NCBI RefSeq assembly: GCF_964355755.1
Contig: NC_092674.1
Location: 4,216,001-4,280,000, forward strand
Length of the DNA stretch: 64,000 nt
DNA from: Antedon mediterranea
Lineage: Eukaryota > Animalia > Echinodermata
Reading direction: 5' to 3'
This document shows positions 5,748-63,550 of the stretch, in pieces (within the stretch, counting starts at the first letter, position 1; each line of letters opens with the position of its first letter). Position numbers and translations under genes: made by a program. Below the pieces are notes generated by a model. It did no database searches. It was given only the letters and a program-made list of their open reading frames with translations, and was not told where the DNA came from.

Positions 5748-6689
5748 ATGATGACTTGCCTATTCAAGGGCATCTTTAGGACCTATCTTCATTACATTCG
5801 TGTTTTGGAAACTAACAACAATGCAACGATACCCGAATGGCTCGAAACCACAGACCAATTCGATCGTATCCTTGCGTCTATCATATTCCTGATTTCTTTA
5901 GAAGTTGTAGTATCAAATATACTGGTACTGCGCACGCTCATCAGAAGTTCTCGCGTGCGCACGAAGAGGAACATCGTACTGTGCAGTTTAATACTATCGT
6001 ACATTTCAAACGCAATCGTTTGGTGGGTCCTTCTATTCGTAAATTCATCAATCATAACAATTCGACTAAATTATTGTCTGGTTGCGATATCGTTTCTGCA
6101 TATACCGACGATCGCTATAGATCGCTACATTGCTATTGTAAAATCACCGGCTAAATATCCTTTCCTGATGACGAGAAATAAGTACATTATTCTCTGTGCA
6201 TTTTTATGGATCAGCGTCATGCTTATGTTTCTTTTATTTTCTATTATTGAACCTTTTCGATTTTACGGAGAACATCTAGCGGCTCAAGTGCTGTATCTGT
6301 ATACGTTTATATGTGTTGCGTTTGTGTATAAACGTATATACAGTTTGCTAGCGACAAGAGAACGAAAACTGAACGATAAGAGAGTGGTGCATTCGATTAG
6401 TCGGACCCGAAGTCGCCTGGGATTGTTCGCAGCAATATTTACGGTTATGTTTATATGTCACACGCCAATGACGATTTTATGCATCATTGCAACAATTGGC
6501 GGCATTGAAATCTGTTATAATCCGTGGTTTTACTGTTTTTTTGTAGTCGGTTGGTTGTTTCTGGCCTTTGCACCGGCCATCAACCCGTTTGTCTACGTTT
6601 GGCGTTTGCCCGGATTCCAAGCAGCGTTTACAAACAGTATTAAATTAAAACGATACAAACCAGCAATTGATAAAGACACGGTATCGTAA
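5748..6689 (+). CDS. Intronless class A (rhodopsin-like) G-protein-coupled receptor, 313 aa
   Basis: Single ORF with about seven hydrophobic segments, SN in TM1, IAIDRYIAI (DRY) after TM3, W in TM4 (AFLWIS), FICHTP (CWxP-like) in TM6, INPFVY (NPxxY) in TM7. Confidence 0.9.
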   Translation: MMTCLFKGIFRTYLHYIRVLETNNNATIPEWLETTDQFDRILASIIFLISLEVVVSNILVLRTLIRSSRVRTKRNIVLCSLILSYISNAIVWWVLLFVNSSIITIRLNYCLVAISFLHIPTIAIDRYIAIVKSPAKYPFLMTRNKYIILCAFLWISVMLMFLLFSIIEPFRFYGEHLAAQVLYLYTFICVAFVYKRIYSLLATRERKLNDKRVVHSISRTRSRLGLFAAIFTVMFICHTPMTILCIIATIGGIEICYNPWFYCFFVVGWLFLAFAPAINPFVYVWRLPGFQAAFTNSIKLKRYKPAIDKDTVS

Positions 6690-31205: not shown

Positions 31206-33510
31206 GTAGGCCTACTGATGTGAATTGTAGTCCCTATTCCAATATAGTGAGCCCCACCTTCGTGTATTATTCCTTTTCCTTCCACCACCGTAACCCTACC
31301 TGTGTGGTGATGTCACAGGCCGCGTTATTAGTATAATTATACCGGAAACAATTTTGCATCAAAAAAGATTTTTTACAATGAAATAGCGTTTGAAATTGCA
31401 GATACGTTACCTGAATATTGGACAAGTTAGAATTGCAGCGGATATTTAAAAAATCAATTATCGGTTTGGCGCCGTATGGAAGTTAGCAAAAATTAAAAAA
31501 ATACCGTTCAAAACATATCATCTTGCAATACAAATATGGTAATATTAAATTCGCTTGTTCTATTATACTAATCAAGTTGTCCGTTAATTTGTAAATAATA
31601 GAGCCTGAAATAGAACCCGTATGAAGAGCTATAATTAGGTTTAATATGCACTCTGATGATCGGTAGGCCTATAGACTGACCTCTTTAATATTTACCAGTA
31701 AAGTTGAGCCCACGTTCAATATCGTAACGGACAATAGAATAGGTATCAGGTTTCCATTTATTAAAAAATAGATAGCGATTCGTGTTACGGTGGTCACTTG
31801 TGATGTTGACAGTTCATACAATTGCTCCGGTAACCTGTATCCAAATTGGATGACGTCACTGCCCTAGATACGTCTCACGGTTACGGAAGCCCATTGTGGC
31901 CTGTCGAGTTCCGATGTGCATCTTGGAAGCGTCAGATCTTAGACGTTCATTTTAAGCTTCTGTACACCCTTGTATAAATATATTTATACGCGAAGAACAT
32001 ACGACAGCATTTAACCTGTCCGTTTGGGATTAACAGGTTGATACAGTTGGCGTTAAGCCAGAAACTAATATTGTGCAAGTTATTATCAAGGTAAGTTATT
32101 GCAATTATTCTGTCCGCTTACAATTTTTGTATTTTCATATTTTAACTATGGTTGTACGTTTCCGAAATAAAAATAAAATGAATGATAGGAACAATTTTAC
32201 CAGGTTTCCGCTGATATACATAAATATAAAAAATCTATATGTTAACAGTAATGTTTTCCTAAATTAATTTTAAAAATCTATCCGAAAAGAAAAAAGAGAA
32301 AAATGTGTTCTATATTTAAGTTGTCAACGCTCAATTTAAAATTTAAAATACAAATCTAAAAAATTAAAAAATAAATATCCGTCTTAAAAAGGTACCGTAT
32401 GTATTGAGATTTGGAAAATTATTTCAGAATTTATGTGAGGTTATTTTTTATTTCATTTTAATTTATTTGACAACTCATCTTGAACATTAAAGATGTATTG
32501 CCCCAAAAAACATGAAAAATGAAGATTAATTAAATCAGAGATTGAATAGGTTATTGTGTAGTTTTATTAAAGTTAATCACTTCTATATAAAAAAAAAACA
32601 TGAACAAATTCGACTGGCTGTTTAGCATGTTTTTGTCTACACAATATGATGTGCCTATATACGGACATGATGATGTCATATCCCTACCATATTTAGGCAC
32701 ATCCTACTTCTGTCAACTTGTTTGATAGTGTAGACAGAGCTTAAGTTTACAATTTTAATAGTTTTCCAATCTTTGGCAAGGTAATTGGAAGTTTGTCGAT
32801 AAATCCTGTCATCGAGTAAGTTCGGTTTGGTGACATTATTAATAGTAGTTTTGTGATTGAATTGCATTGCAAACATACTTTGGTACTTTAAGTTAAACAA
32901 TGTTAGATTTTAGTTTGCAGAAAATATTGATTATTGAAAAATAATTAATCAGTCTTGAAATAAAGGATCATTCGTTGATTGCTAAACTGTTCCAGTCAAC
33001 AATATCAATCACGTAAAATTCGATGAAATTTGTGAAATAATTGCTGAAAGTGTCAAGCTTAGTTCCTACTAGGACACAACGCAGGGACGTAAGCGCACCG
33101 CGAGTAATTTGACCAATCACGACGCGATCCGAAATGTCGCATGTGATTGGTCAACTCCTACGTCGTTACGTTGCGTCCAAAGTGGGAACCAAGCACGAAA
33201 TTACGGTACGGTCACTCGCGCATTTTCTGACCTGATCAAATATTGGCTAAACATTATTTTAACAACGCATGATTGAATATGATTATAATTTAACGGTGTC
33301 AAATTACGTATTAATAAAGTAGAAAAAAGTAAACAAATCCACTAGTACACGTACAATTCTTAACATGTAATTATATAAACTTATGTAAGCAGAGGACCTT
33401 GTCGAGCCGTAAAATGTGAAAAAAAAGTCAAAAAAATTCTACCGAACTTTAGAGTTAAAATAACGATAGTAAAACGATAGTGTAGAATTCTTTGCTAATA
33501 TACATGTACA

Positions 33511-35340: not shown

Positions 35341-37555
35341 ATGGCAAGTTTCATTAGTTTGAGGAAGGTTGTTTCGTGTCAACTAAGCAGAAGATGTATG
35401 TCTACGTCGACCCTTTTGAGACAGAGTAGCAATGGGCACTCTTATGGCGGTCTCTGCGATGGAAAGTCACAAAATAGATACCAACACAAACAGAAGCTTG
35501 ATCACGTGAGATACCAATCGTAAGTTGTAGCAGTTGTAGCGACATTCACACCCACTTAACACGTGGAGTAGAACATTTGAATGTAACAATACCTAAATAC
35601 ACCCTTAGTAAAATTAATTCGTCCTTTAAAGTTGCAGGCGCAAAAATATGGAACAGTTTACCAATTAATATTAAATCGGCACCAACAATTACGTCCTATA
35701 AGGCTAGATACAAATCTCATTTCTTTTCATAAACACTGTATTATATTTAATTAAGTTTTTCTTTTTGATTAAGACAGGACCACAATGTAAAACAGACACA
35801 CTGTTATCTGATTGTTTTATCCTGTATAAATATATTATTTATTATTATTATTATTTATAATTTATATTTAAAAAGTATACCGTTTTAGGCTCTGTCTACA
35901 CTCTCAAACTTTATGTAAAAAAAAATGTGATTTGGACACGATGATGTCATATTACTACAATATTTGGGCACATCACATTTTTTTCTCATAATTGTTGATA
36001 GTGTATACAGAGCTTTAGGCATATGTACCATTCGTTAGGTTTTGAAAATGGAAAGATAATTGTTTTATGAGCGCTTGGTTTAAAAACCTTACAGTGGGCA
36101 GTATTTTCCAATATTATAATAGTATATTTAATGTTCAAGTTTCACCGTCTGACGTAAATAATTAGAACGATCTTTTTTAAAATGTGGCATTTTCTATTTT
36201 ATTTGTATTTTGTTGACTTTTAGGACTTAGGCCTATGTACTTGTATATATGCTCATTTTTAATTTGTGCTGCAAAAAGCCGAACATATAGGCCTAATTAG
36301 TTATCTTTCGTTCATTCTAGAAATAAGCCGAAATCGGCTGACGATACGATAAGCGTCTCAATGTCAAACCGCCAGAGGTACATTAACAATAACGTACTGG
36401 AAACCATAGACCTATCACCTTTGGACGATATACACAAAGATGGTGTTTTCACACGCAACATTGAGAACTACATTGGTACCGTGAAGATTCCAATCGGGAT
36501 GGTCAACGTCGACGTAAATGGTATGTACGCCAAGGGATCTTTCTCTGTCCCTATGGCTACAACTGAAGCTGCATTAGTAGCTTCCTATTCCAGAGGCTGC
36601 AAATTGGTTTCTGTCTGCGGCGGAATCAACACCGTTGTCGTGGAGAAAACCGTTCAGCGAGCTCCAGAATTCCTGTTCGCTAACATTTCTGACGCAAACA
36701 TATTTTACCGGTGGTTTAACAGACCAGAAATGTTTGATAGAATTAAAAAGGCTGCGGAGACTACGACCAATTATGGAAAGCTAAAAAAGACCGCAGCTAC
36801 CTTACATGGTAATAAAGTACTTACTAAGTTTATGTACGAAACTGGTAACGCATCCGGACAAAATATTAGCACATTTGCTACCAATGTTGCTATTACGGAG
36901 TTTCTACAAGATTCTCCTATTCAACCGCAGAAATGGTGGCTGGATGCCGGCGGTTCGCAAGATAAGAAAGCGTCGAGTGGTCTTTTCAACAACTCCAGAG
37001 GTGTCTACGTCACTGGTGAAGTCATCTGCCCTAAAGATGCTGTTGAACAGATTTTGAAAACAACAGGTAGGCCTACTTATTTTAACCATCTTAATTTATA
37101 ATATTCCACGTTTTTTTTAAACTAATTTTTAAAAGCAACTACTATACTATATTATTTTATTTATTACAGTTGATAATTTGAATGAAATCAGCGAATCAGT
37201 GACGATTAGTCAGTATATGCAAGGAGTGACCGGTAAGTTGTCTCGTGGCAATTAATAACTGTACCTTTGTTTGCATTGCGCCCCGTCACGTTTTTCTACG
37301 AGGAGCAAACAACGAGTAACTAAATATATAATTTTACATGAAAAAATATATACAGAGTAGTACTGTTATCTTGTAGGGGGTGAAAAAGGATTTTACCAGT
37401 ACTGTGTTATCGGATAAGGCCCGACGTGGTTTTATAATTAATTTATAAAATTATAAATAAAGTATTGCAAGCTATACAATACTGTACTTTGTACTTCATT
37501 CTTAAGCTCTGTCTACACTATCAAACTTTATGTGACAAAAAATGTGATGTGCCCA

Positions 37556-37587
<32 letters not shown>

Positions 37588-38084
37588 AATCCAAAGGCAA
37601 ATTACTGAAAAAAATGACAATGCTGTGGGTATCAGTGGCTGGATCTCAATGGAGATACAAAAATAAAAAGCGAAAAGCTAAATCAAAACGATAAAGTAAA
37701 CAGCCAGAAAAGTTAGCAGAGCTTTCGGGCAACACTAGCCCTTCATCAGTGCAAGTGAAGGAATTTGGATAACGTCAGAGTATAAAGCTGGCAAGTGCTG
37801 CCTGGGTGGACAGGAATAAAAGAAAGAAATATATATATATATATATATATTTGTTTAGTCTCATTCCAAAATTGTTTATATCTCTACCAAGCTACCTTCT
37901 TTGTTTTCCACTCTTATTCAGACTCCACCCTGGCTCCCTTTGTTATATTTCTTTTATTCCTGTCCACCCAGGCAGCACTTGCCAGCTTTATACTATGACG
38001 TATACTTTTTATTTTTGTATCTCCATTGAGATCCAGCCACTGATACCCACAGCATTGTCATTTTTTTCAGTAATTTGCCTTTGG

Positions 38085-38155
<71 letters not shown>

Positions 38156-39766
38156 TACCATATTTAGGTATACCATCACCATATTTGGAAACATCAAACT
38201 TTTTTGTCAAACTAGTGTAGTATAAAGTGTAGACAGAGCTTAGTCTATGTTATCAACACTGTAATGTACCGAGACCGCCGCAATCTGTCGCAACATTCTG
38301 TTTGTTTAGAATATATCATTTATACATACACATTTTCGTCTAGCCTGTTCAAATAAAGATTATGATAAAAATAGAAAACAAATATGCTGCTTTTGTCTAT
38401 TGTACTATTTTAAGATATAGATTAAACGTGACATTGAAATTGAGCTTTTATTACCGTTATAAATAAACAACTTTAAAAACGGCAGATTGATTATGAGCGC
38501 GTTCAAACTAAAGCTCTGTCTACACTATCAAACTTTATGTGACAAAAATATGATGTGCCCATATAGACAAGATAGTGTCATATCACTACCATATTTGAGC
38601 ATATCATTACCATATTTGGTCTCATCACATTTTTTAAACTAGTTTGATAGTGTATGCCCCAAGTCTGTAGTTATTGTCTATTTTATGTCAATCAACCAGT
38701 CGGCGTTTCGATTTTTGCCTGAGTAATACGAACTCACTGTGTATTATACGTATGGAACGCCATATGTGCCAACATACTTTTTACTAATTTTGGTCTAGAA
38801 CCTAGACTAGTTCAAACTATACAATACTGTATAATAATTTATATCTACTGCGTTCTTACGCGCATGTGCAGTGATCACTGCTTTAGTCGCGCCAATATTG
38901 AAGTATTTGAAATATAATAGTATAGGCTATAATAGTAGTACTATAGTAGTAAAAATGTCAATATTAATATACCACCCTAACCCTTTTCAGTTATCCTCAC
39001 ATTCATTGTAATACCTGGTAAACTAGAGAGTGGATTATTATTATTTTACGATGAGTTGACTTATTGTTTGAGTGATAATTACAATGATTCGGTTATTATA
39101 TATTTTTTTCTTCATAATATAGGATTAACTTGTCACGCCGCTAATGCATTGACCGCCATTTTTATCGCGTGCGGACAAGATGTTGCTTGCGTTGTCGAAT
39201 CTCATGTTGGCGTCACAGAGATGCGCAAGACACCAGAGGGTGATCTTAGGGTACGCCTAACCATACCGTCAATGATGATTGGAACCGTTGGAGGCGGTAC
39301 AGATCTACCTTCTCAAAACGTAAGTTTATTGAAATTAGATAATGTAATTACCAAAATTTGAAAGGTTTTGTATATCATATCATACAAGTTTACTTCCTAT
39401 TAGGACGTAAGCCCGCCGTATATAATTTGACCAATCACGATGAGATGGATCATCCGAACTTTTGATTTTGATTGGTCAACAAACCTACGTGGCGCCTGTA
39501 TGTCGTTGCGTTGCGTCCAAGTAGAAAAGTATAAACGACAATTGCACGCGACAGAATATTTTGTTTACCGTCTAGCCTTTCTTGTATTTTAGACGTGTCT
39601 TAGTATGATACAACTGCCCGAAGAGAACAGTCGAGATGCATTAGCTGAGGTCATAATGGGCGTGCTTTTGGGCGGAGAACTCTCTCTCAGCGCCGCAATG
39701 ACGGCGCATCATTTTTCAGCTGCTCATAAAAAATTCGCCAGAAGTGGAGTCACGAAACGGGTTTAA
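35341..39766 (+). CDS. HMG-CoA reductase-like protein copy 1 (soluble class I catalytic domain, predicted mitochondrial presequence), 5 coding exons, 452 aa
   Basis: Exons 35341-35519, 36321-37066, 37170-37232, 39123-39319, 39593-39766 splice in frame. Motifs ENYIG, PMATTEAALVASYSRG (catalytic Glu), GNASGQN, QDKK (catalytic Lys), HAAN, ACGQD (catalytic Asp), GTVGGGT, GELS, AAHKKFAR (catalytic His). No transmembrane/sterol-sensing domain. Confidence 0.93.
35545..35856 (+). mobile_element. LINE (CR1/L2-like) 3' fragment in HMGR1 intron 1
   Basis: Translates to SFKVAGAKIWNSLPINIKSAPTITSYKARYKSHFFS*, a typical ORF2 C-terminus (WNSLP), followed by a 3' UTR and an (ATT)n tail. Confidence 0.7.
37587..38088. 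mobile_element. Two inverted Penelope-like terminal fragments embedded in (TA)n inside a family B MITE (HMGR1 intron 3)
   Basis: 37587-37670 is the reverse complement of ~38005-38088, and 37772-37830 of ~37944-38000. (TA)n tracts at 37562-37586, 37829-37850 and 38088-38152. The surrounding MITE B spans 37505-38240. Confidence 0.7.
37713..37754 (-). ncRNA. Minimal type I hammerhead ribozyme motif
   Basis: Minus strand reads UUGCA-CUGAUGA-A-GGGC-UAGUGUU-GCCC-GAAA-GC-UC-UGCUAA: intact core, 4-bp stem II, palindromic minimal stem III, near-complementary stem I. Confidence 0.75.
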
Positions 39767-41094
39767 AAAGTGTTTGGAATAGAACATATACTATTAAAGC
39801 ACATATTATGTATTATGACAATGTGTGTTGTGATGTTTGAACATAGACATGAAACAATAAACAAATACATGCTATGTTTACTATTAAGTGTATTAAAATC
39901 ATATTAATTAATTAATATACTTGCACATACGGCACTAGGTATCCTAAAGTTCACGAAAAAAGGTAATTGGCATCCAAGTTAATATCGTATATGAAGTGCA
40001 GAATCTACCACTATTCTGCTGCAGTAAGTTCACTTTTTAATTGTTTCATTGTATTTATGTGGTTTTTGATTGATCAAAATGATCGGAGAATAGAAACAAT
40101 CTTGCATTGCAAGCGTTGGTTCTACTTCGTGATTGGTTAAAACTTGCAAAATGGTCGTATTGCAGTACGGTTTGTTTCTGTTCTGTGATTGGTTGAAAGT
40201 TGTAAACGTTGGCTCGTCCCCCACTTTAATAAGTTTATGGTTCTGCTTTGTGATTGGTTAAAACGTTTTGAGAGGGCGACAAACAAACATTGAGCTACTT
40301 CGCACAACCCTGGCATAGCAGCAGAATCACAATAATTTGATATAATAGTAAATAAGCTTGACCGATAGTACAGTGTTTTGCGGTTTATTATATACATATA
40401 TTTTACATACCACACGTTAGATAATCTTGGGTAAAGTAAACCATTGTGTAAATACATACATCAATCGCCTTAATATCATTCCTTAACAATAACTGTAATG
40501 CATAAATTTATAATATTGTAATAAAGATTAACCATACATTTGTATGTTGACCGGCAAGTACATTATGGACGTGGATTGACTTAGGAAGATTTACTTAAAA
40601 CGTTTAACTTACGTATATCACTACCATATTGGGACACATCAAACTTTGTTGTCAAACTAGTGTAGTATAAAGTGTAGACAGAGCTTAAGTCTATGTTATC
40701 ACCACCTAATAATGTTACCGCCGCAATCTGTCGAAACATACTGTTTAGTTACTTATTGTGTAGAAGAATTGAGAAAGTAACACCCCCGCCCCGATTAAAT
40801 GTTATATTTAAGCAGTAGTATTAAACGTATGTAAAGTAACTGTATATTATTAAGATAGGATAAGTGTAGTTTCTGTAAATAATATTGTACGTCATTTTAA
40901 ATTTTAATTACCGTTAATGTGGATACAGTATAGTGTGTAATATTAGTATGTATTTTATTCAATAAGGGAAGATAATAAATAAAACTAATTATTACAAAAG
41001 AAGTGAAGTCATTGTTAAATTTTTCGATTATCGATGTGTAACTCTCCTCCTGGGCTTAGTGTATCATAAAGAAATTTATTTTGTTAAAATCTTA

Positions 41095-41470
41095 TTTCAA
41101 CAATATTTTACGAGGGTGGTCCATCCAGCCGAAGCTGATCATTAGGGACCCTCACAGAAATACATCATGACAAGACATAAACATGTAACAACAAAAATTA
41201 AATTAAAATAAATATAATTTATGAAGATAAAATAAAGCACAAACAATTTAAAATCAAAAATTAAATAAATAAAATTAAATTGGCCATTTGATAAAATGGA
41301 AGTATCTAAACAAGAAGATAGTCCTTGAGCAGAAATTTGAAGGAAAAGGGTAAGATGAAGCAAGTCGGATATCTAAAGGAAGAGAATTAAAAAAAGTAGG
41401 AGCATTGAAGCTAAAGGACTGTTTGAACAGTTCCAAGTAAGGTCTGGGTATAATGAGATCACCGTTAGTG
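41095..41470 (-). mobile_element. LINE 3' fragment (ORF2 C-terminus plus 3' UTR)
   Basis: Minus strand reads QSFSFNAPTFFNSLPLDIRLASS...FKFLLKDYLL*, resembling L2/CR1 ORF2 ends. Confidence 0.55.
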
Positions 41471-42644
41471 ATCTGCTGTGTGGCCTGCAGCCATTAGATG
41501 TGATCTTAGCAAGTAAATAAATAGCATTATTATTAGACGATATTTTTCAGTACCTTTGCGCCGGTCTTCACCCCTCTTTTTTTCCCATTAGTCACCCCTC
41601 TTTTAATCCTTCAGTCACCCTTCTGTTTTTCCAATCAAACCTCGCCCACCCACCCCATAATCCATTCACCCAACACCGCGTTCTTTGATTTTAAGGTTAC
41701 CGACAAATGAACCGTACTCATTCATATACATAGTCTTTACTTATGTTTTTATAGTGCTATTCTAATTAAATATCCGATTTCGGAGCATTTTGGTAAACTT
41801 ATTTTTCAATATTTAATTTTGATTCAAAGATTTTGTCGTCTTTTGAATGTTAAACAATTTTCAACTATGTGAACTTTATCTGGTACCATTTATAGGTCCT
41901 GTTTGATTGTATTTTTAATGGCAGATAATGTTTGCTTAGCCAAGTCCTAAACAAACATTAGCACCTTGTTGAAATAGATATAATTATGATAATGTATTGT
42001 GTGAAAAGTAACATTATATATAGCTTTTATGTGTTATTTTTAGACAACGGTTCATGATACATACTATTATCATTCGTTATAGGCGTGTACAAGTTTGAAA
42101 CTTTGGACCAACATCAATGTCATAATTATTATGGACCTATACTTTATGTTTATGCAGTTTATGTATACAGATCCCACTCGAAATAATAATAATAAGAAAA
42201 AAAACCCATTAACAAACAAAAATATTAACGCACTTAAATAACCACTCTTTTTTTATGTAGTAAGCCTGTATAGTAAAGTTACTATTTTAAAATCAGGTGA
42301 TTACCGAACTTTGAAAATCAAGAAATAATTCCTTTAATTTCTTTCCATTAAATTAGTTAATGTGTCACTAGGCAATGTGTGCCAATTATATGTGTTTATA
42401 ATTTTAGTATTGTTCTATTTGACAATCTTGTGATAAAAATCACCAGATTTTCTGTTCGATCTATCGAGCCGATCCTTATCACTGAACTTCGAAACTTCCG
42501 AATAGATCTATAAAAATTATTATCTGTCAAGAGGTAGTTGGATAACTGGACTAAAATATCCTTTGAAGGTTGACATATTGATTATCAGCACTGACTTATC
42601 AGTATAAATTGGTACAATGTTCTAAAAATACATTGCTTGCAATA

Positions 42645-43978
42645 CAGTGCAAACACATCAGCAATCGTAACTCTAAATTTAGAAACATCGAATTCTAAAA
42701 TTATAATATGTTACTAATTTTGGACTGAAACCAAAATGTTTGCAGAAGATAAAATGGGCGTATGGATTAATGGAGATATTAATGTGCAATGTATCTAATG
42801 TTCTAATTCTGTACTTTGAACAAACGTCATCTCTTAGAAACATCGAATACTAAAATTATAATGTGTTTCTAATTTTAGACTGTAACCAAAATGCTTGCAG
42901 AAGATAAAAATGAGCGTATGGATTAATGGAGATATTAATGTGCAATGTATCTCATCTGCTAATTCTGTATTTTGAAAATTGAATGAGAGATTTATATTAA
43001 ATTTTCATTACTATTTCTGTTTTATTTCTTTATTTATCCACACTCGTAAACAATTTCAAGACCAGGAAAGAGTGGTATTTTAACTTAAAAGTTACGGTTA
43101 TTTTATTTGTTTACCCTTTCACGTGATCCTTCGAAGTGGGTTCATCACATCACAATAAACATATCAATACGACTTAGGTGTCACATTTTTAAGCGTATGA
43201 AGACGAAAGGAAGTATCGGAATATAGAATGTATTTTTACATAAAATATAGTAAATAGGTCGAACAAACGCAGGTCTAGTGTCTCTTAAGCGTGGTTCCCA
43301 CTAGCGACGCAACGCAATTGGACGTAACGCAACGCAAGTGAATTGGCCAATCACAGGCGATGGCTTATTCGCTTGTGATTGCTACCGGTCTATAACTTCG
43401 CTTGTCATTGGTTAAAACGCTTGCGCTGCGTTTACGTCCTTGCGTTACGTTCAAGTGGGAACCAAGCCATCGCTTGTGATTGGTCAATTCACTTGCGCTG
43501 CGTTACGTCCTTGTGTTGCGTCGCTAGTGGGAACCACGCTTAAACAATACTACTATTCATATACAACTATACATTTATCTAACCAATAGGAAACGCTACT
43601 TTTGTATGTTGTGTACTGTGTTCATTTTAAAGTTTATCTGATTGCTTGTGATTTCTAGTTTTACTTTACCGTAATATTTTCGGAAGATGACAGAAAAAAA
43701 TAAACTGTATTGGGATTGATCAACTAGTGCTCTCTAGAGTTGGATAAACGTCTACCTAATTATAAACAAATGAATGAATATCTAATATAAATCTCTCATT
43801 CCAATTTCAGTACAGAAATTAGTAAATGATATACATTGCACATTATCTCTATTAATCCATACGCCCATTTTTATATTCTGCAAACATTGTGGTTTCAGTC
43901 TAAAATTAGTAACATATTATAATTTTAGCATTCGATGTTTCTAAATTTAGAGTTACGATTATTGATGTGTTTGCACTG
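42645..43978. mobile_element. Tc1/mariner-type non-autonomous element with long TIRs, containing a nested family A MITE (43288-43540)
   Basis: TA|CAGTGCAAAC...GTTTGCACTG|TA; arms of ~150-170 bp are reverse complements; the left arm is partly duplicated at ~42834-42990. Confidence 0.8.
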
Positions 43979-44961
43979 TACTATTGATAACTGATAGTAA
44001 GTAAATGCACCTGAGTACGTCCATGCCCTTTCCGAAACCTAAACATTCTTCTAAAGTTTTTCGCATATTAATGCGAAAACCTATAGTTGATAGTACTAGT
44101 TTTCTTTTTCATTCGGGACATTATTTGGTGGTGGTGGTATTAGGATTGGTCAACTAGGTATCTCGACGTTGTGAAGAATGTCTACCCACTAATTGATGGT
44201 AACTAAATTCACCCGAGACCTTTTTCCACACCAATAGTTTGTTCTCTTTTCGCATTAATAATGGTAAACATCTATAATAGTATTAGTTTTTTTTTCGTCG
44301 AGAAGTTATCTTAAAAGATAATATATATATATATATATTTTTTCTTCCATCAATTAAAACAGCCATATATAATTGAACCACTACTTTGAACATTTGCCAA
44401 GTGGCTGTTTGATGCTGAATTCCTATTGGTTGGTTCTGCACCTGTTGTTAATAATATGCTAATTAGGTTAAATACAGAAATATCAAGAAGTCGTCGTATG
44501 ATTAGCAAAACGACTCATGAGATGTGGTAAGCGTATCTTAAGTTATAAATAGACACGTTGATATTATTAGATAATACATAATCAATAAGATTATTGTGTT
44601 TTAATATTTCAAAATAGATTATAGAAGGTCGTTGACCGATGAATGAACTGTTTTCGTAACTCTTACCGTATTATTGATGGCCGATCCTCACAGATACAGT
44701 AGGCATTTGTGAAATTCAATCAAATAATTACATCAGAATATATAGAAGTTTGAATTAAACTTTCCTCCTTTGCATTTGTTGTATACTAAGATGAAAGGCC
44801 ATGCTTGTATTAAAAAATAATAAACAACGATGTTAGATCAGAAAAAAACTCTTTCTGAAGAATGAAATGAAAACATGTCTAACAACAGAATAATATCTTC
44901 ATTAAAATTAGAGTAAACATGTTTAACATGTTTATGACAACAACCCTTAGATCTGATCATT

Positions 44962-45045
44962 AGTTGCCCCAAAGGTAGTTGCCCCAAAGGTAGTTGCCCC
45001 GGAGGTATTTGCCCCAAAGGTAGTTGCCCCAAAGGTAGTTGCCCG
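44962..45045. repeat. 15-bp tandem repeat (agttgccccaaaggt), about 5.5 copies
   Basis: Visible directly. Confidence 0.85.
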
Positions 45046-45047
45046 GA

Positions 45048-45390
45048 CGGTATAGTTGTTAGTGTAATTGTCCAGGATGTTGCCCGATAACTGAAAAGAT
45101 GCGGTTTAATAAACAACATGAACCACCACTGACTAACTGTAGGTAGTTGTTTTTATCATTGTCCAGGGGGGTTGCCCGATAACTGAAAAGATGCGGTTTA
45201 ATAAACAACATGAACCACCACTGACTAACTGTAGGTAGTTGTTTGTATCATTGTCCAGGGGGGTTGCCCGATAACTTAAAAGATGTGGTTCAATAAACAA
45301 CTTTACGAACCACCACCAACTGTAGGTAATTGTTTTGTTTGTGTAATTGTCCAGGGGTTGCCCGATAACTTAAAAGATGCGGTTAAATAA
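45048..45390. repeat. ~93-bp tandem repeat, about 3.5-4 copies, upstream of HMGR2
   Basis: ttgtccagg..gttgcccgataact.aaaagatgcggtttaataaacaac recurs at ~45068, 45159, 45251 and 45347. Confidence 0.85.
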
Positions 45391-45590
45391 ATAAATAAAT
45401 AATATATTTACATGAAACACGTTACCAGTGTACCTGTAGATAATGCTACCTTATCGGTCATTGACTGCGCATGTTCCGTGACTTCACAATGTATAAAACC
45501 CTTTCGAGACGTGATACGGATATCATTCAGTGTTACCAATTATTACAAAATACGCGTTGTAAAAACTGGTCTAAGGATAACTGCTTGACA

Positions 45591-48500
45591 ATGTCGAAGT
45601 TAAGGATTTTGAGCAGAACAGCAACTAATGTTAATTCGTTTGGTCGATATTTTTCTACGAGCGTTTTGAAACAGAGCAGCGCAGGCGATGATGCTGACTT
45701 TAACGCACGAAAATCATTTCATAAAGTGTCGAACAAAGCCACCGCTGATATCCAAGTTAGAAACCAATCGTAAGTACTAAAATAATATGTAAGCATTTCT
45801 TTGAAAGAGAGAGAGAGAGAGAAATTAGATTTTACGATAGAATACAAGGGCGGGTCTGTGATTTCTTGAAAAAGGAGAACGGATAATGGGCGGCTCTCCC
45901 ATATCCGCGCCTGCTGCAGCTGTATGTAGTTTTTATCCTAACCGCACGTTCAGTATATAGCTTAAAGCTCTGTCTACACTATCAAACGTTATTTAACAAA
46001 AATGTGCCCATATAATGACATGATGATGTTCATAATTAGTTATATTTCACCATATCAGATTTGTTACTGTGAGGAATTTGTTTGTGGAAAAGAATATTCC
46101 ATCATTTTATGAATATTTGAGGATTTCGACTTACCGATTTCTTACAAGAATAATGAAAAGCGAAAACAGAATGTTAATTTGTATATACAAATATTTATTG
46201 ATGGATTCAAACATGTACTACAAATGGAGAGAGGCATATACCAATAGATAAAAGTTTTGGTCCTCTCTCCTTCATCTTTTTTGTTTTCTTTGTAATGCAT
46301 TATACCATATGGACAATTGTCTAAAATAAAAGTTGAATTGAATTGAATTGAATATCCCACCTACACTATTGTTATAGTACTTTGTGTTTTCCACCGATGT
46401 AAAGCTGTAATTCCCAATAATTGATTAATTGATATCTACTTTTCCATGTAATTTGTCGTTTTAGTTATAGGCCTATGAAGTTACTTTCTTATAGCCATAA
46501 TCACTTATATCGATATTAAACAAGTATTTGTGATACTCAGTATGCTAATAGAGTATTTGAATATGTGTGGTGAAATGCCGTAAATATATCATAGCTATAT
46601 ACTTTAAAATAACTTCTTACTTTTTCTAGAAACCAGGCTGAGTCAGCCACTGCTACTAGTGTGTCACTTAACAATAGAAACATGTACATCAACCAAAACG
46701 CGTTGCGTAATGTTGACCTATCACCGTTGGACGACATGTACAATGATGACACGTACACACGTAGCGTGGAAAAGTACATCGGAACTGTTAAAGTCCCAGT
46801 TGGGATGGTTAACGTCGACGTAAATGGCATATACGCAAAGGGATCATTCTCTGTGCCTATGGCTACAACTGAAGCTGCATTAGTGGCATCCTACTCAAGG
46901 GGCTGTAAGCTTATCAGGGCATGTGGAGGAGTCAACACAGCAGTTATCGGACAGACAATTCAGAGAGTTCCAGAGTTCATATTTCGCAACCTACCCGACG
47001 CGTACACTTTTTTACAGTGGTTTGATCGCCCCGAAGTCTTTAACGCTTTAAAATTGGCTGCCGAGAGTACAACAAACCACGGTAAACTTATTAAGATAGT
47101 ACCTAACTTACATGGTAATAAGGTTCATGTGAAGTTTTTGTATGAAACTGGAAACGCGTCTGGCCAGAATATCAGTACATTCGCTACCAATGCAGCTATT
47201 ATGAATGTTCTTCCCGAATGCCCTATTCAGCCAGAAAAGTGGCTGCTGGAAGCAGGTGGTTCGCAAGACAAGAAGGCTTCAATTGGGTTTTACAACAATT
47301 CTAGAGGATTGTATGTCACTGGTGAGATGGTGTGCCCAAAAGAACTTGTTGAAAGTATTCTAAAAACATCAGGTAAGTTTAGCCAAACTGTAAACAACCA
47401 CCTATCTATTTTCGCAGGTAACCATCTACGTTCAAATCTAAGATTAAATTCAGTATCCTAAGTTGAATCATTAGAGAAAAGGACTAAATAAATAAAATCC
47501 CTGTTGACTGAAATTACTTTCTCTAATCTAAAATGCGTTAATAAAGATAAGGGTAATAATGTTTAATGTTCTGAATTTATTTTGGCAGTTGATAACATGA
47601 ATGATGCCAACGAGTCGACACTTATGAGCTTATACATGCAAGGAGTAACAGGTACGTCACGTGAATGTTACGTAATAATGATCTTAATAATGTTGGAATA
47701 AAAGTAGACAGACATTTCTAATTCCCTTCATACTTACTACTAAGTTTATTTCAATACGTGCTTTGTACACAACTTTGATAAAACTGCGCAAAGCTTGTTC
47801 GTCAATTTTTTTTATTTTGGTAATGTTTAAAATGGTGATATATTTGTACAATTTGAGTGATTTATTTTTGTATTGTAATATATTTCAGGATTGACATACC
47901 ATGCATCCAATGCCCTGGCCGCCATCTTCATCGCATGCGGACAGGACCCTGCCTGCGTCGCCGAAAGTCATGTTGGCGTGCAAGAGGCGCGTAAAACACC
48001 AGAAGGCGATCTAAGACTTCGAATAACGATGCCATCCTTAATGGTGGGAACAGTTGGAGGGGGAACATTCCTGCCTTCACAAAGGGTAGGTTTTATGATT
48101 TATTTTGTCCAGAACTCAACTGTCAATGAACACTTGTTACGGACCTTATTTAGTTTAAACAACATTTAAAATAAAGTCCTGTAGTAGTAGCCAACGACAG
48201 ACAGTGATGTGCGCCTTGGTTGGACCTCAGTGTTGTAGTAAGCATATAGCGTTTGGGGTGTCTCGGCAGCCTAATTATGGTCCTGACACTTTAAAAAAGG
48301 TTTGTTTCACGACACTCGTTCTGTTTTACCACTGACGAAAATTTAGTTCAATTATTATTAATTATTATATTTTATAAAACAAAGAAATGTTATCCCGGAG
48401 TTACCCTTTAACATAATGTATTTGTGTATTACAGACTTGTCTTGATATTGTGCAACTTCCAGAAGAGAAAAGTCGACTTGCTTTTGCTGAAGTTATATTG

Positions 48501-48608
48501 GGCGTTATATTAGGAGGAGAACTGTCAATTGCGGGCGCTATGACTGCACATCATTTCTCATCAGCCCATCACAGTTTGGCTCGAAAAGGGAACGGAGTAA
48601 GAAAGTAA
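45591..48608 (+). CDS. HMG-CoA reductase-like protein copy 2 (soluble, predicted mitochondrial presequence), 5 coding exons, 451 aa
   Basis: Exons 45591-45769, 46630-47372, 47589-47651, 47889-48085, 48435-48608, with the same phases and near-identical lengths as copy 1. Motifs EKYIG, PMATTEAALVASYSRG, GNASGQN, QDKK, ACGQDPACVAES, GTVGGGT, GELS, SAHHSLAR. Confidence 0.93.
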
Positions 48609-50307: not shown

Positions 50308-52760
50308 CTATTTTTTTTCTTCGCAAGGCTCGTATTCAAATTCCAGTCCCGTTCCGGTTAATGATTCTCTCAATACAGAATCTATCAGCTTGTTCTGCGC
50401 AACTGTAAAATGATTCATCCAATCGCCAACGCCACCTGGATGACGAAACAAATGATAAGTGTAACCCATATCAGCCTACTCTCATGTTTTGTAACAAATG
50501 TGTTTGTCGTCAGAGGATCAAAAGAGAAAAATCGAACCCACAACCTCCAGATTTACTAGCCTCTTGTATTCAAATGAATTGGGCCCACACTAGTCTAGGT
50601 TCCAGACAGAGTTTTGACTTAATATTAGTAAAAAAGATAAATATTTTGGCAAATATGGCGTTTCATACGTATACTACTTGAGTTCAGACAAACATCGAAA
50701 AGCCTCGAAATAACTACAGACTGGGGAAAGTCTAGGCCCACACGTAGGCCTACTTATGGGCGGAAGAAGTAGTAAAGGATCTCGTTGTGCGCCACAGTAT
50801 CATACTTAATTCAGACAATGACGTCATGTCCTTTACTTACCTTTTCTCATAAACGTAGAAACATTGAGGTCAAAGTCCGTGAGACCTGTGAAGTTGGCCA
50901 TCGGGTTCTTGCTCATCTTTTTGAAAGTACACTGATCGACTGTCTTCTGGAGGGCTTCTTCTGACAGGGTCTTTCCAAGATGATCGCATATTTTGATGAC
51001 GTTTCCTCGAAGATCCTGAATTGAATTATAGTTGATTTGTTTAGTCATTTATTCATTATGACGGCAGAATTTAAATGTCCCCGTAGTACTGCATTTATTT
51101 TCAGATATCGTTAAATCATTCTTTTCAATCGATATTATTACGGATATTTTTTTAAGAATTTTTTTTTACGGATAGATTTACGTTATTGTTGGTTTCCGAG
51201 TTGTTTCGTTACTAAATTATGTTCTGTATTAGACCTATAGTGAATGTACAGTTAATCTATATACCTAAACCTACTTACTCGCTTCATGTCTTCATATTTT
51301 AGAAAAAGAACGTTTTCATCATGGCGATTCTGCCACCAACTGGTTACGTGATGAACCCAAGATCCATACGGAGCTGTTTGATAAAAAATAAAAGAAGAAA
51401 AAACTAGGCCTACTTTATAGTATACCATAGCTTACAACTTCACACATTTTAATTTCGCTTAACCGAAACCTTTATTCATTTGGCCTGGGTTACAGATAAG
51501 TTTGCTTCGATATCTGGAAGCTGGAATATCAACAAGAAGTATCTTGACTGCTTTTGCTTTCTTTTAAACTTTGAACCGTTTCCTTTTTGTTCTGCGCTTT
51601 TATTCACTTTGTTATGTTCAGTCAAGTTGTTTGGGTTATGAGATCATAAAATAGTAATGCCACACTACAAAATTACAAAATGCGTATATGTAAATGAGAA
51701 ATGTATATTATATTTTGGGCAAACTCCCCTATACGCATGCGCGTATCCGTGTCTCCGTGTCACAACACGTATACGAATACGATTTAATTTATAGCGTTTT
51801 CCATTTGTGTAAAATCATTTTTGTACTGTACTCGATAGAGGGCTAAAGGTATATAAGGTTAGCCTGTCTAGCCTAGGCCTAGTCAACATTTTTTACTTTT
51901 TGTCGTTTTCTTGAAGCATTTTAATACTAAATCCTGTCTGAATTAAGTTTTGCTGATAAGTGATCTTTGCCACGTGTAACACTTTTGATTTTCAACGAAT
52001 AAATCTTAAACGTGTGAAATCCGCACGTCGATACGCACCGAAATCGCGTATACTGTATTGGTGTCACGCAACACAGATTGTGTGACGTAGTACGCGATTA
52101 TCCATACGTATACACGGAGGTTGCCCAAACTGATATGTAGGAGGCGCACTTACATTTCATGGGAATCATCATCTTCAACAGGTAATCCTCCCAACTACTC
52201 ATTCTGTCGTCATCACTATAAGCTTTGAACATCTTCAAAAAGTGGAACGCTGACACACAGATGTCTTTGTAGTTTCGTGCCACGTATACTGCCTATTATA
52301 TAGTACGTATAGCCTATTATACAGTACACGTATAGTGCCTATTATATAGTACGTATTATATAGTACATATATTGCCTATTATATAGTACGTATTATATAG
52401 TAGGCCTACATATATTGCCTGTTATAGTACAAAACCAATGAGTATTTTTTTAACCATTCTTGTTTTTTTCATCATCATCAACAACATCATCGTCGCCGTT
52501 TCGACGTCGTAGTTAACAACACCACCGTAATTGTCATCGGTGGTTATCAGAAAACATCAATGTGACCACCGTTTTTATTATATACTTATCCTCGTCATTG
52601 CTCCTTCTATGAGGTCATGATCAATCCTCATATGACGTCATAATCTATCCTACTATGACGTAATAATCTATCCTAATGTGACGTGTTCATCAATCTTCTA
52701 TGCTCATTACATCATCTTGATTGTTGTAGTCTACCGCCGCCATCATAATTTGTATCACCG

Positions 52761-52791
<31 letters not shown>

Positions 52792-53431
52792 TATCATCAT
52801 CATCATCCTTTATCATCGTCGTCGTCTTCGTTCTAATAAATTCGTCATTTTCAGTTGCTGCTGTTGTTGGCGTTATCATTACCTTTGCTTTTTTATTATG
52901 GAAATCAGGGGGCATCGTATCAAACGCCATGTGTGTTTTTATTAGTCTTGGTTTATCACGTGGCATGTTTGCAATCTTTTTAATTAGGATGTTGCCTGGT
53001 TTGGCTGTGCTCATTTCAAGATGTGGCACCCGTTCTTCAACGTGAATCGACGTAATCTTCTCAACGTCAGCCTCGTAATAAATCATTGAGACTATTTCCT
53101 GTAACCATGTTGTTCCTGTTAATTATAGATTGATTAAATATTGTATATCAATATTAATTGTATTTGTTTTTTCGATTTCTCCATTGTTATTTTCTCTATT
53201 GTTGAAGGCTATTGTCTTTTTTTAAAAGAAGCATTGTTTACCTGATTTTGGAAAAGATATAACGTAAACGTCATCATTTCGTACTTCAAACGTTTTCATC
53301 GCTTCAAGCGTACTTGCATGAACAAACCACGGGTATGGAACGCCATCGTAGACATGAAGACCAGACCCGGCCTGGAATTCAATATCAGGATGCTCAATTG
53401 ACGATTTGATTGAATCCTTACTTGCTGACAT
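50308..53431 (-). CDS. Cytosolic PAPS-dependent sulfotransferase (SULT1-like), 6 coding exons, 319 aa
   Basis: Minus-strand exons 53431-53242, 53115-52883, 52292-52154, 51373-51279, 51015-50841, 50435-50308 splice in frame. Motifs SFPKSGTTW (5'-PSB), RLIKTH (catalytic His), YVARNYKDICVS (3'-PB), PYGSW, FLKYEDMK, FMRKGGVGDW. Confidence 0.95.
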
Positions 53432-59812: not shown

Positions 59813-62800
59813 GCAGGCATTTTGACCAATCACAAGCCGATTGTGTCAACTGTTGCTTGTGATTGGTCAAGTTCCTTAAGTGCAAAACCGCAAGCGTTCG
59901 CTTCACGTGCTCACAAACTATTAAGTACGAACTTACAAGTTCGTACGCCCAACCCAATCTTCTAAAAATATTTTAAGTAGACCTACTTACCCTTGAGTAA
60001 CCCAAGGAAAAAATACCAGATAAACACCTGTTATATAATATAAATATTGAAAATTAAACCTCATGGGTGGATATAGAAAATATGAATATTACTAGGTCTG
60101 TATACACGGCGGCCGGCGATTTTTTTTTTCGTACATAAGTTGGGGACCCCCTCATGAAACGTCACAAAATAAACATGAATAATTCATCAGTTAAATTTGT
60201 TGTTCCGTGTGCACCCAAGTGTATAGCAACAAGAAGTGATTACACGCACAAAACTAACTGCGATACGATTCTTTCTACAGTAGGCCTAGGATTCTAGGTC
60301 AATTCACGTGATTGCCTTCGCGCGCGCACTCTTCTTAATCTTCACACACACACCACTATGCAAAATGTGTCGAGGCTAATCGACAGCTAGGCAAGATATT
60401 AAACTAAGTACTGTAGTTAATTGGACATAGCCCAAAGAAAGCTTAGACCCACAAGAATAAAAAATGTATATAATCTGTGTACTGTAATTTTTTATCAAAC
60501 AATATGCATGTACTCAAAGGAACTTTAAAAATGCGCGTATATGAACACATGAGATGGGAAGATTAGACTCACGAGAATAAAAAATGTATTTTTGTGTAAT
60601 GTTTATTGTTTAATTTTGCTGACTTATTACTCGGACTGTGTCGTACCTAACACACACACGTCACACACACCACACAGCTACTACTAGAATAGAAATGGGT
60701 TTAGAGACTAATAATTAGGCCTAATAGTATTAATAGAAACTATAATTTTAACACGTAATTCTTTAGTAATAAATTATATTAAAAACACCATAAACCAAAG
60801 GCTGATTATTTCGACAATCCACACAAAACGACGGTATTCTTCTATGAAATCGCACGCCGCAACCACAGCGGAGATAGGCCTAGAATCGTATCGCAGTTGT
60901 ATTGTGTAATCGCTTCTTGTTGCTATACGCTTGGGTGCACACGGAACAACAAAATTTAACTGATGAATTATTCATGTTTATTTTGTGACGTTTCATGAAG
61001 GGATCCCCAACTTATGTACGAAAAAAAAAATCGCGACCGGGCACGCATATCGAGTAGACTTGCCCCAAGCCTGTATATTTATATTATTGTCTTTTTATTA
61101 TGTTAGTCCACCATGAAGTATTATACGTTTAAAACGCCAAGTGTGCCAAAATATTTATCTTTTAAAAATTATATTAAGTTGAAATTTCAGTCTAGAACCT
61201 AAGTATACAAGATGTACTCTTACATTATGTTTCTTCAAACATGGTGCTTCAACTTAGGCTGTTGCCCTTCAAATGAATAACCTATATATTTATTGCCTTA
61301 CATTTCGTACGCAGGCATTTTGACCAATCACAAGCCGATTGTGTCAACAGTTGCTTGTGATTGGTCAAGTTCCTTAAGTGCAACCAAAACCGCACGCGTT
61401 CGCTTCACGTGCTCACAAATTATTAAGTACGAAGTTCGTACGCCCAACCCAATATTCTAAACATATCTTAAGTAGACCTCCTTACCCTTGAGTAACCCAA
61501 GAAAAAAATACCAGATAAACACCTGTTATATAATATAAATATTGATAATTAAACCTCACGGGTGGATATAGAAAATATGAATATTACTAGGTCTATATAC
61601 ACGGCGACCGGGCACGCATACGAGTAGACTTGCCCCGAGCCTGTATATTTATATTATTGTCTTTTTATTATGTTAGTCCACCATGAAGTATTATACGTAT
61701 GAAACGCCAAGTGTGCCAAAATATTTATCTTTTAAAAATTATATTAAGTTGAAATTTCAGTCTAGAACCTAAGTATACAAGATGTACTCTTACATATGTT
61801 TCTTCAAACATGGTGCTTCAACTTAGGCTGTTGCCCTTCAAATGAATAACCTATATATTTATTGCCTTACATTTCGTACGCAGGCATTTTGACCAATCAC
61901 AAGCCGATTGTGTCAACTGTTGCTTGTGATTGGTCAAGTTCCTTAAGTGCAACCAAAACCGCACGCGTTCGCTTCACGTGCTCACAAATTATTAAGTACA
62001 AAGTTCGTACGCCCAACCCAATATTCTAAAAATATCTTAAGTAGACCTACTTACCTTTGAGTAACCCAAGGAAAAAATACCAGATAAACACCTGTTATAT
62101 AATATAAATATTGATAATTAGACCTCATGGGTGGATATAGAAAATAAGAATATTACTAGGTCTATATACACGGCGACCGGGCACGCATATGAGTAGACTT
62201 GCCCCAAGCCTGTATATTTATATTATTGTCTTTTTATTATGTTAGTCTACCATGAAGTATTATACGTTTGAAACGCCAAGTGTGCCAAAATATTTATCTT
62301 TAAAAAATTATATTAAGTTGAAATTTCAGTCTAGAACCTAAGTATACAAGATTTACTCTTACATATGTTTCTTCAAACATGGTGCTTCAACTTAGGCTGT
62401 TGCCCTTCAAATGAATAACCTATATATTTATTGCCTTACATTTCGTACGCAGGCATTTTGACCAATCACAAGCCGATTGTGTCAACTGTTGCTTGTGATT
62501 GGTCAAGTTCCTTAAGTGCAACCAAAACCGCACGCGTTCGCTTCACGTGCTCACAAATTATTAAGTACAAAGTTCGTACGCCCAACCCAATATTCTAAAA
62601 ATATCTTAAGTAGACCTACTTACCTTTGAGTAACCCAAGGAAAAAATACCAGATAAACACCTGTTATATAATATAAATATTGATAATTAAACCTCATGGG
62701 TGGATATAGAAAATAAGAATATTACTAGGTCTATATACACGGCGACCGGGCACGCATATGAGTAGACTTGCCCCAAGCCTGTATATTTATATTATTCTCT

Positions 62801-63550
62801 TTTTATTATGTTAGTCTACCATGAAGTATTATACGTATGAAACGCCAAGTGTGCCAAAATATTTATCTTTTAAAAATTATATTAAGTTGAAATTTCAGTC
62901 TAGAACCTAAGTATACAAGATGTACTCTTACATATGTTTCTTCAAACATGGTGCTTCAACTTAGGCTGTTGCCCTTCAAATGAATAACCTATATATTTAT
63001 TGCCTTACATTTCGTACGCAGGCATTTTGACCAATCACAAGCCGATTGTGTCAACTGTTGCTTGTGATTGGTCAAGTTCTTTAAGTGCAACCAAAACCGC
63101 ACGCGTTCGCTTCACGTGCTCACAAATTATTAAGTACAAAGTTCGTACGCCCAACCCAATATTCTAAAAATATCTTAAGTAGACCTACTTACCTTTGAGT
63201 AACCCAAGGAAAAAATACCAGATAAACACCTGTTATATAATATAAATATTGATAATTAAACCTCATGGGTGGATATAGAAAATAAGAATATTACTAGGTC
63301 TATATACACGGCGACCGGGCACGCATATGAGTAGACTTGCCCCAAGCCTGTATATTTATATTATTCTCTTTTTATTATGTTAGTCTACCATGAAGTATTA
63401 TACATATGAAACGTCAAGTGTGCCAAAATATTTATCTTTTAAAAATTATATTAAGTTGAAATTTCAGTCTAGAACCTAAGTATACAAGATGTAGTCTTAC
63501 GTAAGTTTCTTCAAACATGGTACTTCAACTTAGGCTGTTGCCCTTCAAAT
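59813..63550. repeat. Tandem array of a 569-bp unit, about 5 copies
   Basis: gcaggcattttgaccaatcacaagccg starts at 59813, 61311, 61880, 62449 and 63018 (569-bp spacing after the first unit); the units are nearly identical. Confidence 0.95.
60116..61034. mobile_element. ~920-bp TIR element inserted in the first unit of the 569-bp array
   Basis: TIRs of ~160 bp (gcgatttttttttttcgtacataagttgggga... / ...tccccaacttatgtacgaaaaaaaaaatcgc). The empty site cacggcgaccgggcac in the other units shows a 5-7-bp target duplication with one mismatch. Confidence 0.88.

Follow-up and report, generated by a model that had tools for sequence, protein, structure and literature searches.

Two adjacent genes of the crinoid Antedon mediterranea raise a question of enzyme identity: do animal proteins that resemble HMG-CoA reductase (HMGR; HMG-CoA is 3-hydroxy-3-methylglutaryl-coenzyme A) but lack its membrane domain make mevalonate, or do they reduce a different substrate? 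We analyzed a window of 64,000 nucleotides (nt) from this species (NCBI RefSeq assembly GCF_964355755.1, contig NC_092674.1, positions 4,216,001 to 4,280,000 of the forward strand; positions below are counted from the first letter of the window). It holds two intact tandem five-exon genes with the class I HMGR fold and without a membrane domain. We concluded that both genes probably encode acyl-CoA reductases of the FcrA type, predicted to be mitochondrial, and that they were likely acquired horizontally. FcrA is a class I HMGR homolog that reduces acyl-CoA of at least 14 carbons to the alcohol with NADPH (PMC11948995, Grossi et al. 2025). The same paper reports that HMG-CoA was no substrate for FcrA and that 10 µM simvastatin left the enzyme uninhibited; that the assayed enzyme was Pb-FcrA of Ca. 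Promineifilum breve, a Lad-domain type, and the FcrA of N. pharaonis was modelled; and that eukaryotic members exist, which the accessible text mentions without names (PMC11948995).

The coordinates and gene models of the original prediction, which had described genes for proteins of 452 and 451 amino acids (aa), proved correct. Joining the exons gave frames without internal stops, and the products match the Antedon mediterranea RefSeq proteins XP_071949940.1 (gene 1) and XP_071949890.1 (gene 2) at every residue, the start methionine of XP_071949940.1 being that of gene 1. All eight introns are GT–AG, their phases (2, 1, 1, 0) are common to both genes, and the two proteins are 66% identical. 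Both genes lie on the plus strand. Exon 1 of gene 1 (35341–35519) encodes a leader, a predicted mitochondrial presequence with the motif RCMSTS at aa 18. Exon 2 (36321–37066, 746 nt) carries the catalytic residues E142 and K275, the cofactor motif NASGQN, and an FcrA-type D268 at the Ser684 site. Exon 3 (37170–37232) contributes V319 in place of the HMG-binding Lys735, exon 4 (39123–39319) the catalytic D349, and exon 5 (39593–39766) F436 at the Leu862 site, the catalytic H440 and the stop codon. Gene 2 is built in the same way: a leader exon with a predicted presequence and RYFSTS at aa 19 (45591–45769), exon 2 with E141, K274 and an FcrA-type E267 (46630–47372, 743 nt), exon 3 with T318 at the Lys735 site (47589–47651), exon 4 with D348 (47889–48085), and exon 5 with F435, H439 and the stop (48435–48608), followed by a 3' untranslated region that extends beyond 48900. 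The original prediction had placed most of the domain in one exon of about 745 nt, which is exon 2 here.

We compared catalytic and substrate-binding residues in a 102-row alignment, with sites numbered as in human HMGR. The four catalytic residues predicted earlier were confirmed in both proteins (E142/K275/D349/H440 in gene 1, E141/K274/D348/H439 in gene 2), and R590, D690 and K692 were retained. The Ser684 site is acidic in both (D268, E267), the HMG-binding Lys735 is replaced by V319 or T318, and the Leu862 site holds a bulky residue (F436, F435). We spotted this altered pocket before the FcrA paper came up. That paper names three selectivity sites, with Glu for Ser684, a small residue where HMGR has its HMG-binding Lys, and a bulky one for Leu862, while the tetrad is kept (PMC11948995). 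The Lys is printed there as Lys795, and its spacing from the catalytic Lys makes it human Lys735. Spacing agrees as well. The catalytic Lys and Asp lie 74 residues apart and the Asp and the aromatic residue 87 apart, equal to N. pharaonis FcrA (367/441/528; PMC11948995), versus 75–76 (all 19 rows) and 86–95 (Asp to the 862 site) in rows labelled canonical; V319 and T318 lie 44 residues after the catalytic Lys, as does Gly411 of N. pharaonis. S684, K735 and L862 were present in 19 of 19 canonical rows, a count that is partly circular, and to that extent weakens our case, because we set the label ourselves from motifs and tree position. Among the 61 other non-canonical rows, the 684 site held E in 43, D in seven and S in three, and the 862 site F in 55, W in three and L in one. 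Three of the four FcrA-like rows (P0161, P0162, P0176, P0214) showed the pocket pattern, with W at 862; P0214 has R. Since the pocket residues match those of FcrA, the genes likely encode acyl-CoA reductases, by analogy with that enzyme. A Foldseek search matched the predicted fold to human HMGR (1DQ8/1DQ9, E = 5e-28, 33% identity).

The original prediction had placed the proteins with prokaryote-type enzymes and outside the canonical eukaryotic HMGR lineage, and both placements stood. The best non-crinoid matches are bacterial or metagenomic proteins of 38–49% identity, and the closest non-crinoid relatives among the matches listed are mostly bacterial. In these relatives the cofactor motif is GQN and the loop reads [ED]-x-[NG]-x-S-x-DKK, versus GMNM and SGNxCxDKK in canonical enzymes. 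In an IQ-TREE analysis (LG+G4, 61 rows) the crinoid proteins fell inside a 48-row non-canonical clade with support of 100/99, and a C20 mixture tree of 34 rows recovered the same clade (100/98). Rows were hand-picked from a 363-row FastTree set, with isoforms, near-copies and frameshifted rows excluded. Forced grouping with canonical eukaryotic HMGR, represented by fungal or unnamed rows with no named animal, was rejected (approximately unbiased test, p-AU = 0.0044). The non-canonical clade includes proteins bearing PF25653, which we infer to be the Lad domain, and proteins fused to an adenylation (A) domain. Pb-FcrA itself lay outside our alignments and trees, its subclade being represented by the PF25653 proteins; membership of the crinoid proteins in the same non-canonical clade as FcrA is thus an indirect, sequence-based assignment.

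The company that these relatives keep points toward acyl chemistry. Of 42 relatives scanned, mostly picked for length, three had an ACBP domain and seven an AMP-binding domain, several with a carrier domain in addition. In P0143, P0148, P0169, P0173, P0186 and P0187 an adenylation domain (in some also a carrier) is joined to the HMGR-fold reductase, an architecture that resembles carboxylic acid reductase with a differing reductase fold. The HMGR-like domain is combined with PilZ, response-regulator or AfsA hotdog domains in P0156, P0159, P0165, P0167, P0172, P0180, P0170 and P0193, which suggests signal-controlled reductases. Eukaryote-like FcrA relatives with an AKL or SKL end or an ACBP fusion were also seen (P0138, P0145, P0164, P0253; P0018, P0117, P0140). 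Around 80 bacterial loci, many on short contigs, we found a UbiA-family gene nearby in 44, a phosphoenolpyruvate (PEP)-dikinase-like gene in 39 and DUF3419 in 35. Across several phyla (L003, L008, L021, L064 and about 30 other bacterial loci) the FcrA-type reductase recurs in one operon together with a UbiA-family transferase, a PEP-dikinase-like protein, DUF3419 and a membrane protein of no assigned family; this could be an undescribed alkyl-lipid pathway. No mevalonate-pathway family occurred among 34 neighbours scanned. In five genomes of bacterial relatives, the completeness of which is not known, DXR was found in all five and mevalonate kinase above cut-off in none.

The absence of a membrane anchor, also predicted originally, was borne out. 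Pfam detected PF00368 in both proteins; a sterol-sensing domain had no match in either protein, nor among 241 GC-selected open reading frames (ORFs) of the 1077 in the window. Maximal 19-residue hydropathy was 1.6 (gene 1) and 1.9 (gene 2), both within helices of the catalytic domain. We looked for spliced-on upstream exons encoding a sterol-sensing domain and found none. Gene 2 transcripts begin no more than 125 nt ahead of the ATG, and an in-frame stop lies immediately upstream. The gene 1 ATG is preceded by a splice acceptor, which makes a further exon upstream likely, and only 5.3 kb separate gene 1 from the stop of the preceding gene. A TATA-like sequence on the plus strand at about 31970–32090, with a GT donor at 32091, marks a candidate non-coding first exon of gene 1; inspection by eye of this exon, which ends at 32090, revealed no in-frame ATG back to 32020. 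A search for longer proteins gave 12 matches among 2893 candidates and no animal HMGR, and was uninformative on whether Antedon has a canonical HMGR.

In place of an anchor, both proteins have a leader that the original prediction overlooked as a targeting signal. The first 30 residues contain no acidic, five basic and 8–10 Ser/Thr residues in all four orthologous crinoid proteins, and the motif R-x-[FM]-S-T-[ST] occurs in all four leaders (gene 1, gene 2 and two Anneissia orthologs). None of 373 other proteins combined this composition with the motif, by thresholds chosen after the crinoid leaders were seen. The motif is kept although the leader diverges elsewhere (dN 0.72 between genes 1 and 2). 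By the usual rules, the leaders look like mitochondrial presequences.

We sought evidence that these are functioning host genes. For gene 2 the predicted splicing was confirmed: all four junctions appeared as GT..AG joints in contigs of two of four public sequencing runs (X1 and X4, from two studies), which shows that these two contain processed transcripts, and in runs X2 and X3 the gene 2 introns were covered. Contigs of the gene 2 transcript start at 45467 and 45542, and none of the loose ends listed falls at either position. The read evidence for splicing covers gene 2 junctions alone; run X4, which holds spliced gene 2 transcripts, also contained 94% of sampled words of gene 1 exon 2, suggesting that gene 1 is expressed. 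Both genes are under purifying selection. The dN/dS ratio between them was about 0.12 (0.206/1.68) in the catalytic part, and seven of eight read variants in the gene 2 coding sequence were synonymous. Introns 1 and 3 of gene 1 contain repeats that recur at many other sites in the window. A TA-flanked inverted-repeat element (37555–38152) lies inside intron 3 of gene 1, and tandem arrays of 15-nt and 92-nt units (44961–45391) lie directly upstream of gene 2.

Host genes flank the pair. A VPS36 domain is encoded upstream of gene 1, with the VPS36 stop near 29995, and a cytosolic sulfotransferase (SULT) gene on the minus strand (50320–53431, boundaries by eye) lies tail-to-tail with gene 2, its end about 1.7 kb from the gene 2 stop. 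Contamination or an assembly artefact, to which the bacterial identity of the best non-crinoid matches might seem to point, was ruled out and merits practically no credence, because gene 2 is spliced in transcript contigs, the introns hold host repeats, VPS36 and SULT flank the pair on a chromosome of 31.9 Mb, and a second crinoid has orthologs. The earlier argument from flanking genes and intron repeats was therefore sound, both having been found. Introns, host flanks and the orthologs likewise show integration into the host, as expected of a horizontally acquired gene.

The only named animals among the matches listed (120 of 157 and 120 of 2897) were two crinoids, Antedon and Anneissia. Each has at least five loci (P0001, P0002, P0005, P0134 and P0308 in Antedon; P0003, P0121, P0136, P0004 and P0135 in Anneissia), a family expansion that the original prediction overlooked. 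It had proposed a duplication, and our tree agrees: genes 1 and 2 cluster together, apart from Anneissia (99/86), so the duplication is recent and lineage-specific. A further paralog, P0004/P0005, is without the catalytic Lys and His and Asn755 and yet is 89% identical between Antedon and Anneissia, versus 63–66% for active copies, which makes it a candidate conserved pseudoenzyme on sequence grounds; it has a polybasic N-terminus and an acidic tail. The annotated models of P0134, P0135 and P0308 are truncated or apparently skip the short third exon, and these copies may be degenerate or mis-annotated.

How the enzymes would work can be outlined by analogy with FcrA. They would form oligomers with active sites between subunits, and NADPH would supply two hydride transfers, a four-electron reduction. 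Glu142, Lys275, Asp349 and His440 would catalyze the conversion of unbranched acyl-CoA to primary alcohol and CoA. Asp268 would repel the carboxylate of HMG, the pocket would open up because the Lys735 salt bridge is lost, and Phe436 would keep out the branched HMG head. Because the pocket is of the FcrA type, insensitivity to statins would be expected. The leader would direct import into the mitochondrial matrix, with predicted cleavage after the R-x motif near residue 19–20. That the alcohols go into wax esters, ether lipids or sulfated alcohols is speculation. We propose no single chain length, because 12 of 59 modelled FcrA pockets accept only smaller molecules, and these pockets are mainly eukaryotic (PMC11948995). 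The fuller proposal, that a captured microbial FcrA gave crinoid mitochondria a second fatty-alcohol route independent of the animal fatty acyl-CoA reductases (FAR), with about five loci per genome and one pseudoenzyme, is tentative, and we give it slightly less than an even chance.

Some observations count against FcrA-type function and mitochondrial location. The FcrA paper calls the residue at the Lys735 site 'generally small' (PMC11948995); Val and Thr, found here, are larger than Gly, Ala or Ser. The monomer model has a mean pLDDT of 73.8, falling below 50 at residues 270–283 beside the pocket; the Pb-FcrA subclade lies about two substitutions per site from the crinoid proteins; and protist relatives end in SKL or AKL, a peroxisomal type of signal. 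Could the proteins be true soluble bacterial-type HMGRs after all, making mevalonate outside sterol feedback, possibly from mitochondrial HMG-CoA of leucine breakdown? Trypanosomatids have a soluble mitochondrial HMGR, the RefSeq name is HMGR-like, and fold, tetrad, R590, D690 and K692 are all kept. Yet none of the equivalents of Ser684, Lys735 and Leu862 is retained, the carboxylate of the substrate would meet an acidic residue, those bacterial relatives that were tested rely on the methylerythritol phosphate pathway, and FcrA with equivalent changes failed to reduce HMG-CoA (PMC11948995). The mevalonate route of the original prediction thus did not survive: it is very unlikely, because the HMG-binding residues are replaced as in FcrA, relatives carry acyl-domain fusions and a distinctive operon context, and the five genomes tested have DXR and no mevalonate kinase above cut-off. 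A shift of substrate within the FcrA lineage, toward short, branched or polyketide-derived acyl-CoA for crinoid secondary metabolism, perhaps paired with the sulfotransferase, is improbable in our judgment but worth keeping in view. The small eukaryotic pockets just described, the change of Asn686 to Gly, Ala or Ser and of Asp653 to Asn in the crinoid proteins, repeated duplication within each crinoid, the nearby sulfotransferase gene end, and crinoid polyketide sulphates named in the title of a reference in PMC6627624 are all consistent with it. The sulfotransferase adjacency, however, is known from one genome and is weak, and we found no paper that connects alkyl sulfates or fatty alcohols with crinoids.

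Turning from FcrA-type function to origin, the likely and more economical explanation is that crinoids or a deeper ancestor of theirs gained the gene horizontally, the donor being a bacterium or a microbial eukaryote; there are findings that pull the other way. Most matches are nameless, and 50%-identity clusters may conceal other animals. The subclade that includes the crinoids also contains P0142 (EukProt, Clim identifier), P0164 from Clastostelium recurvatum, and five sequences treated as protist-like for their ACBP fusions or SKL/AKL ends, which argues against a simple bacterial transfer. The Clim identifier presumably denotes the unicellular holozoan Corallochytrium limacisporum. Within a mostly bacterial clade, the trees leave the crinoid, protist-like and Vibrio-type groups as a polytomy, without supported nesting in a donor clade: among 1000 bootstraps, protist plus Vibrio appeared in 519 and crinoid plus protist in 467, and crinoid plus protist monophyly was not rejected (p-AU = 0.41), which weakens a direct bacterial donor. 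Of the original proposal of bacterial acquisition, then, the mostly bacterial relatives and the integrated host genes stand, and the direct bacterial donor is in doubt. These same results can be cited for vertical inheritance, in which crinoids, Corallochytrium and some amoebozoans kept an old eukaryotic FcrA lineage that other animals lost. P0277, a metagenome protein of 227 aa that the tree joins to the crinoid proteins as their sister (100/99), can be added: it reads on across the positions of introns 2 and 3 but diverges from the family precisely where crinoid intron 4 lies, which hints at another eukaryote host. On the other side, none of 1000 bootstraps paired the crinoid clade with P0142 alone, P0142 grouping instead with the amoebozoan P0164 (99/97), and no other named animal, fungus or choanoflagellate appears among the matches listed, so many independent losses would be needed. 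We regard vertical descent as unlikely, though a serious contender. Scanning metagenomes with P0277 as the lead sequence yielded 80 loci of 32–42% identity and no close relative, and a genome scan with gene 1 alone gave no relative. In the literature covered, which excludes most subscription journals, we came across no description of an FcrA member from a crinoid or any other animal, nor of horizontal transfer of a crinoid HMGR, and on FcrA itself found only the original paper (PMC11948995).

If the FcrA assignment is true, FcrA in animals would be a second route analogous to FAR1/FAR2, and these would be the first animal enzymes of the HMGR fold that do not make mevalonate. The family has been known since 2025; its extension to animals would be new, in a setting where 'HMGR-like' annotations are presumed isoprenoid. 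The genes would be candidates for a lipid or secondary chemistry peculiar to the crinoid lineage, and a case of a foreign gene expanded and retargeted to a compartment. The paralog that is conserved yet looks catalytically dead suggests that the HMGR fold also has a non-catalytic role. For extra HMGR copies in other eukaryotes, the three pocket positions should be checked before a mevalonate-pathway expansion is called. Elsewhere in the window we observed a long plus-strand ORF with a rhodopsin-family seven-transmembrane receptor domain (5724–6686) and equal-sized ORFs recurring every ~569 nt at 61281–63195, suggesting a tandem array that exceeds the length limit of the repeat finder.

Comparison with known systems places the crinoid proteins closest to FcrA. 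They share with it the class I HMGR fold, the tetrad, the three selectivity substitutions and the Lys–Asp–aromatic spacing; they differ in having an animal host, introns, a leader resembling a presequence where FcrA has a Lad domain, Phe at 862 in place of Trp, Val or Thr at 735, a distant subclade, and an expanded family with a dead-looking paralog. The 'HMG-CoA reductases' of Vibrio, Aliivibrio, Photobacterium, cyanobacteria and Verrucomicrobiota are 39–49% identical to gene 1 and resemble the window proteins in their single domain, GQN motif and E-x-N-x-S-x-DKK loop. Unlike the crinoid genes, they often share an operon with genes for UbiA, a dikinase-like protein and DUF3419, and their products lack the leader; the crinoid clade is not nested within them. 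Canonical animal HMGR (human 1DQ8/1DQ9) has the fold and tetrad in common with the window proteins, which are without its sterol-sensing anchor, have its HMG-binding Ser, Lys and Leu replaced, and belong to another clade. Lastly, FAR1 and FAR2, the fatty acyl-CoA reductases of animals, are peroxisomal membrane proteins with a Rossmann fold of the short-chain dehydrogenase/reductase type. They carry out the net reaction predicted here, acyl-CoA plus two NADPH to fatty alcohol, with an unrelated fold.

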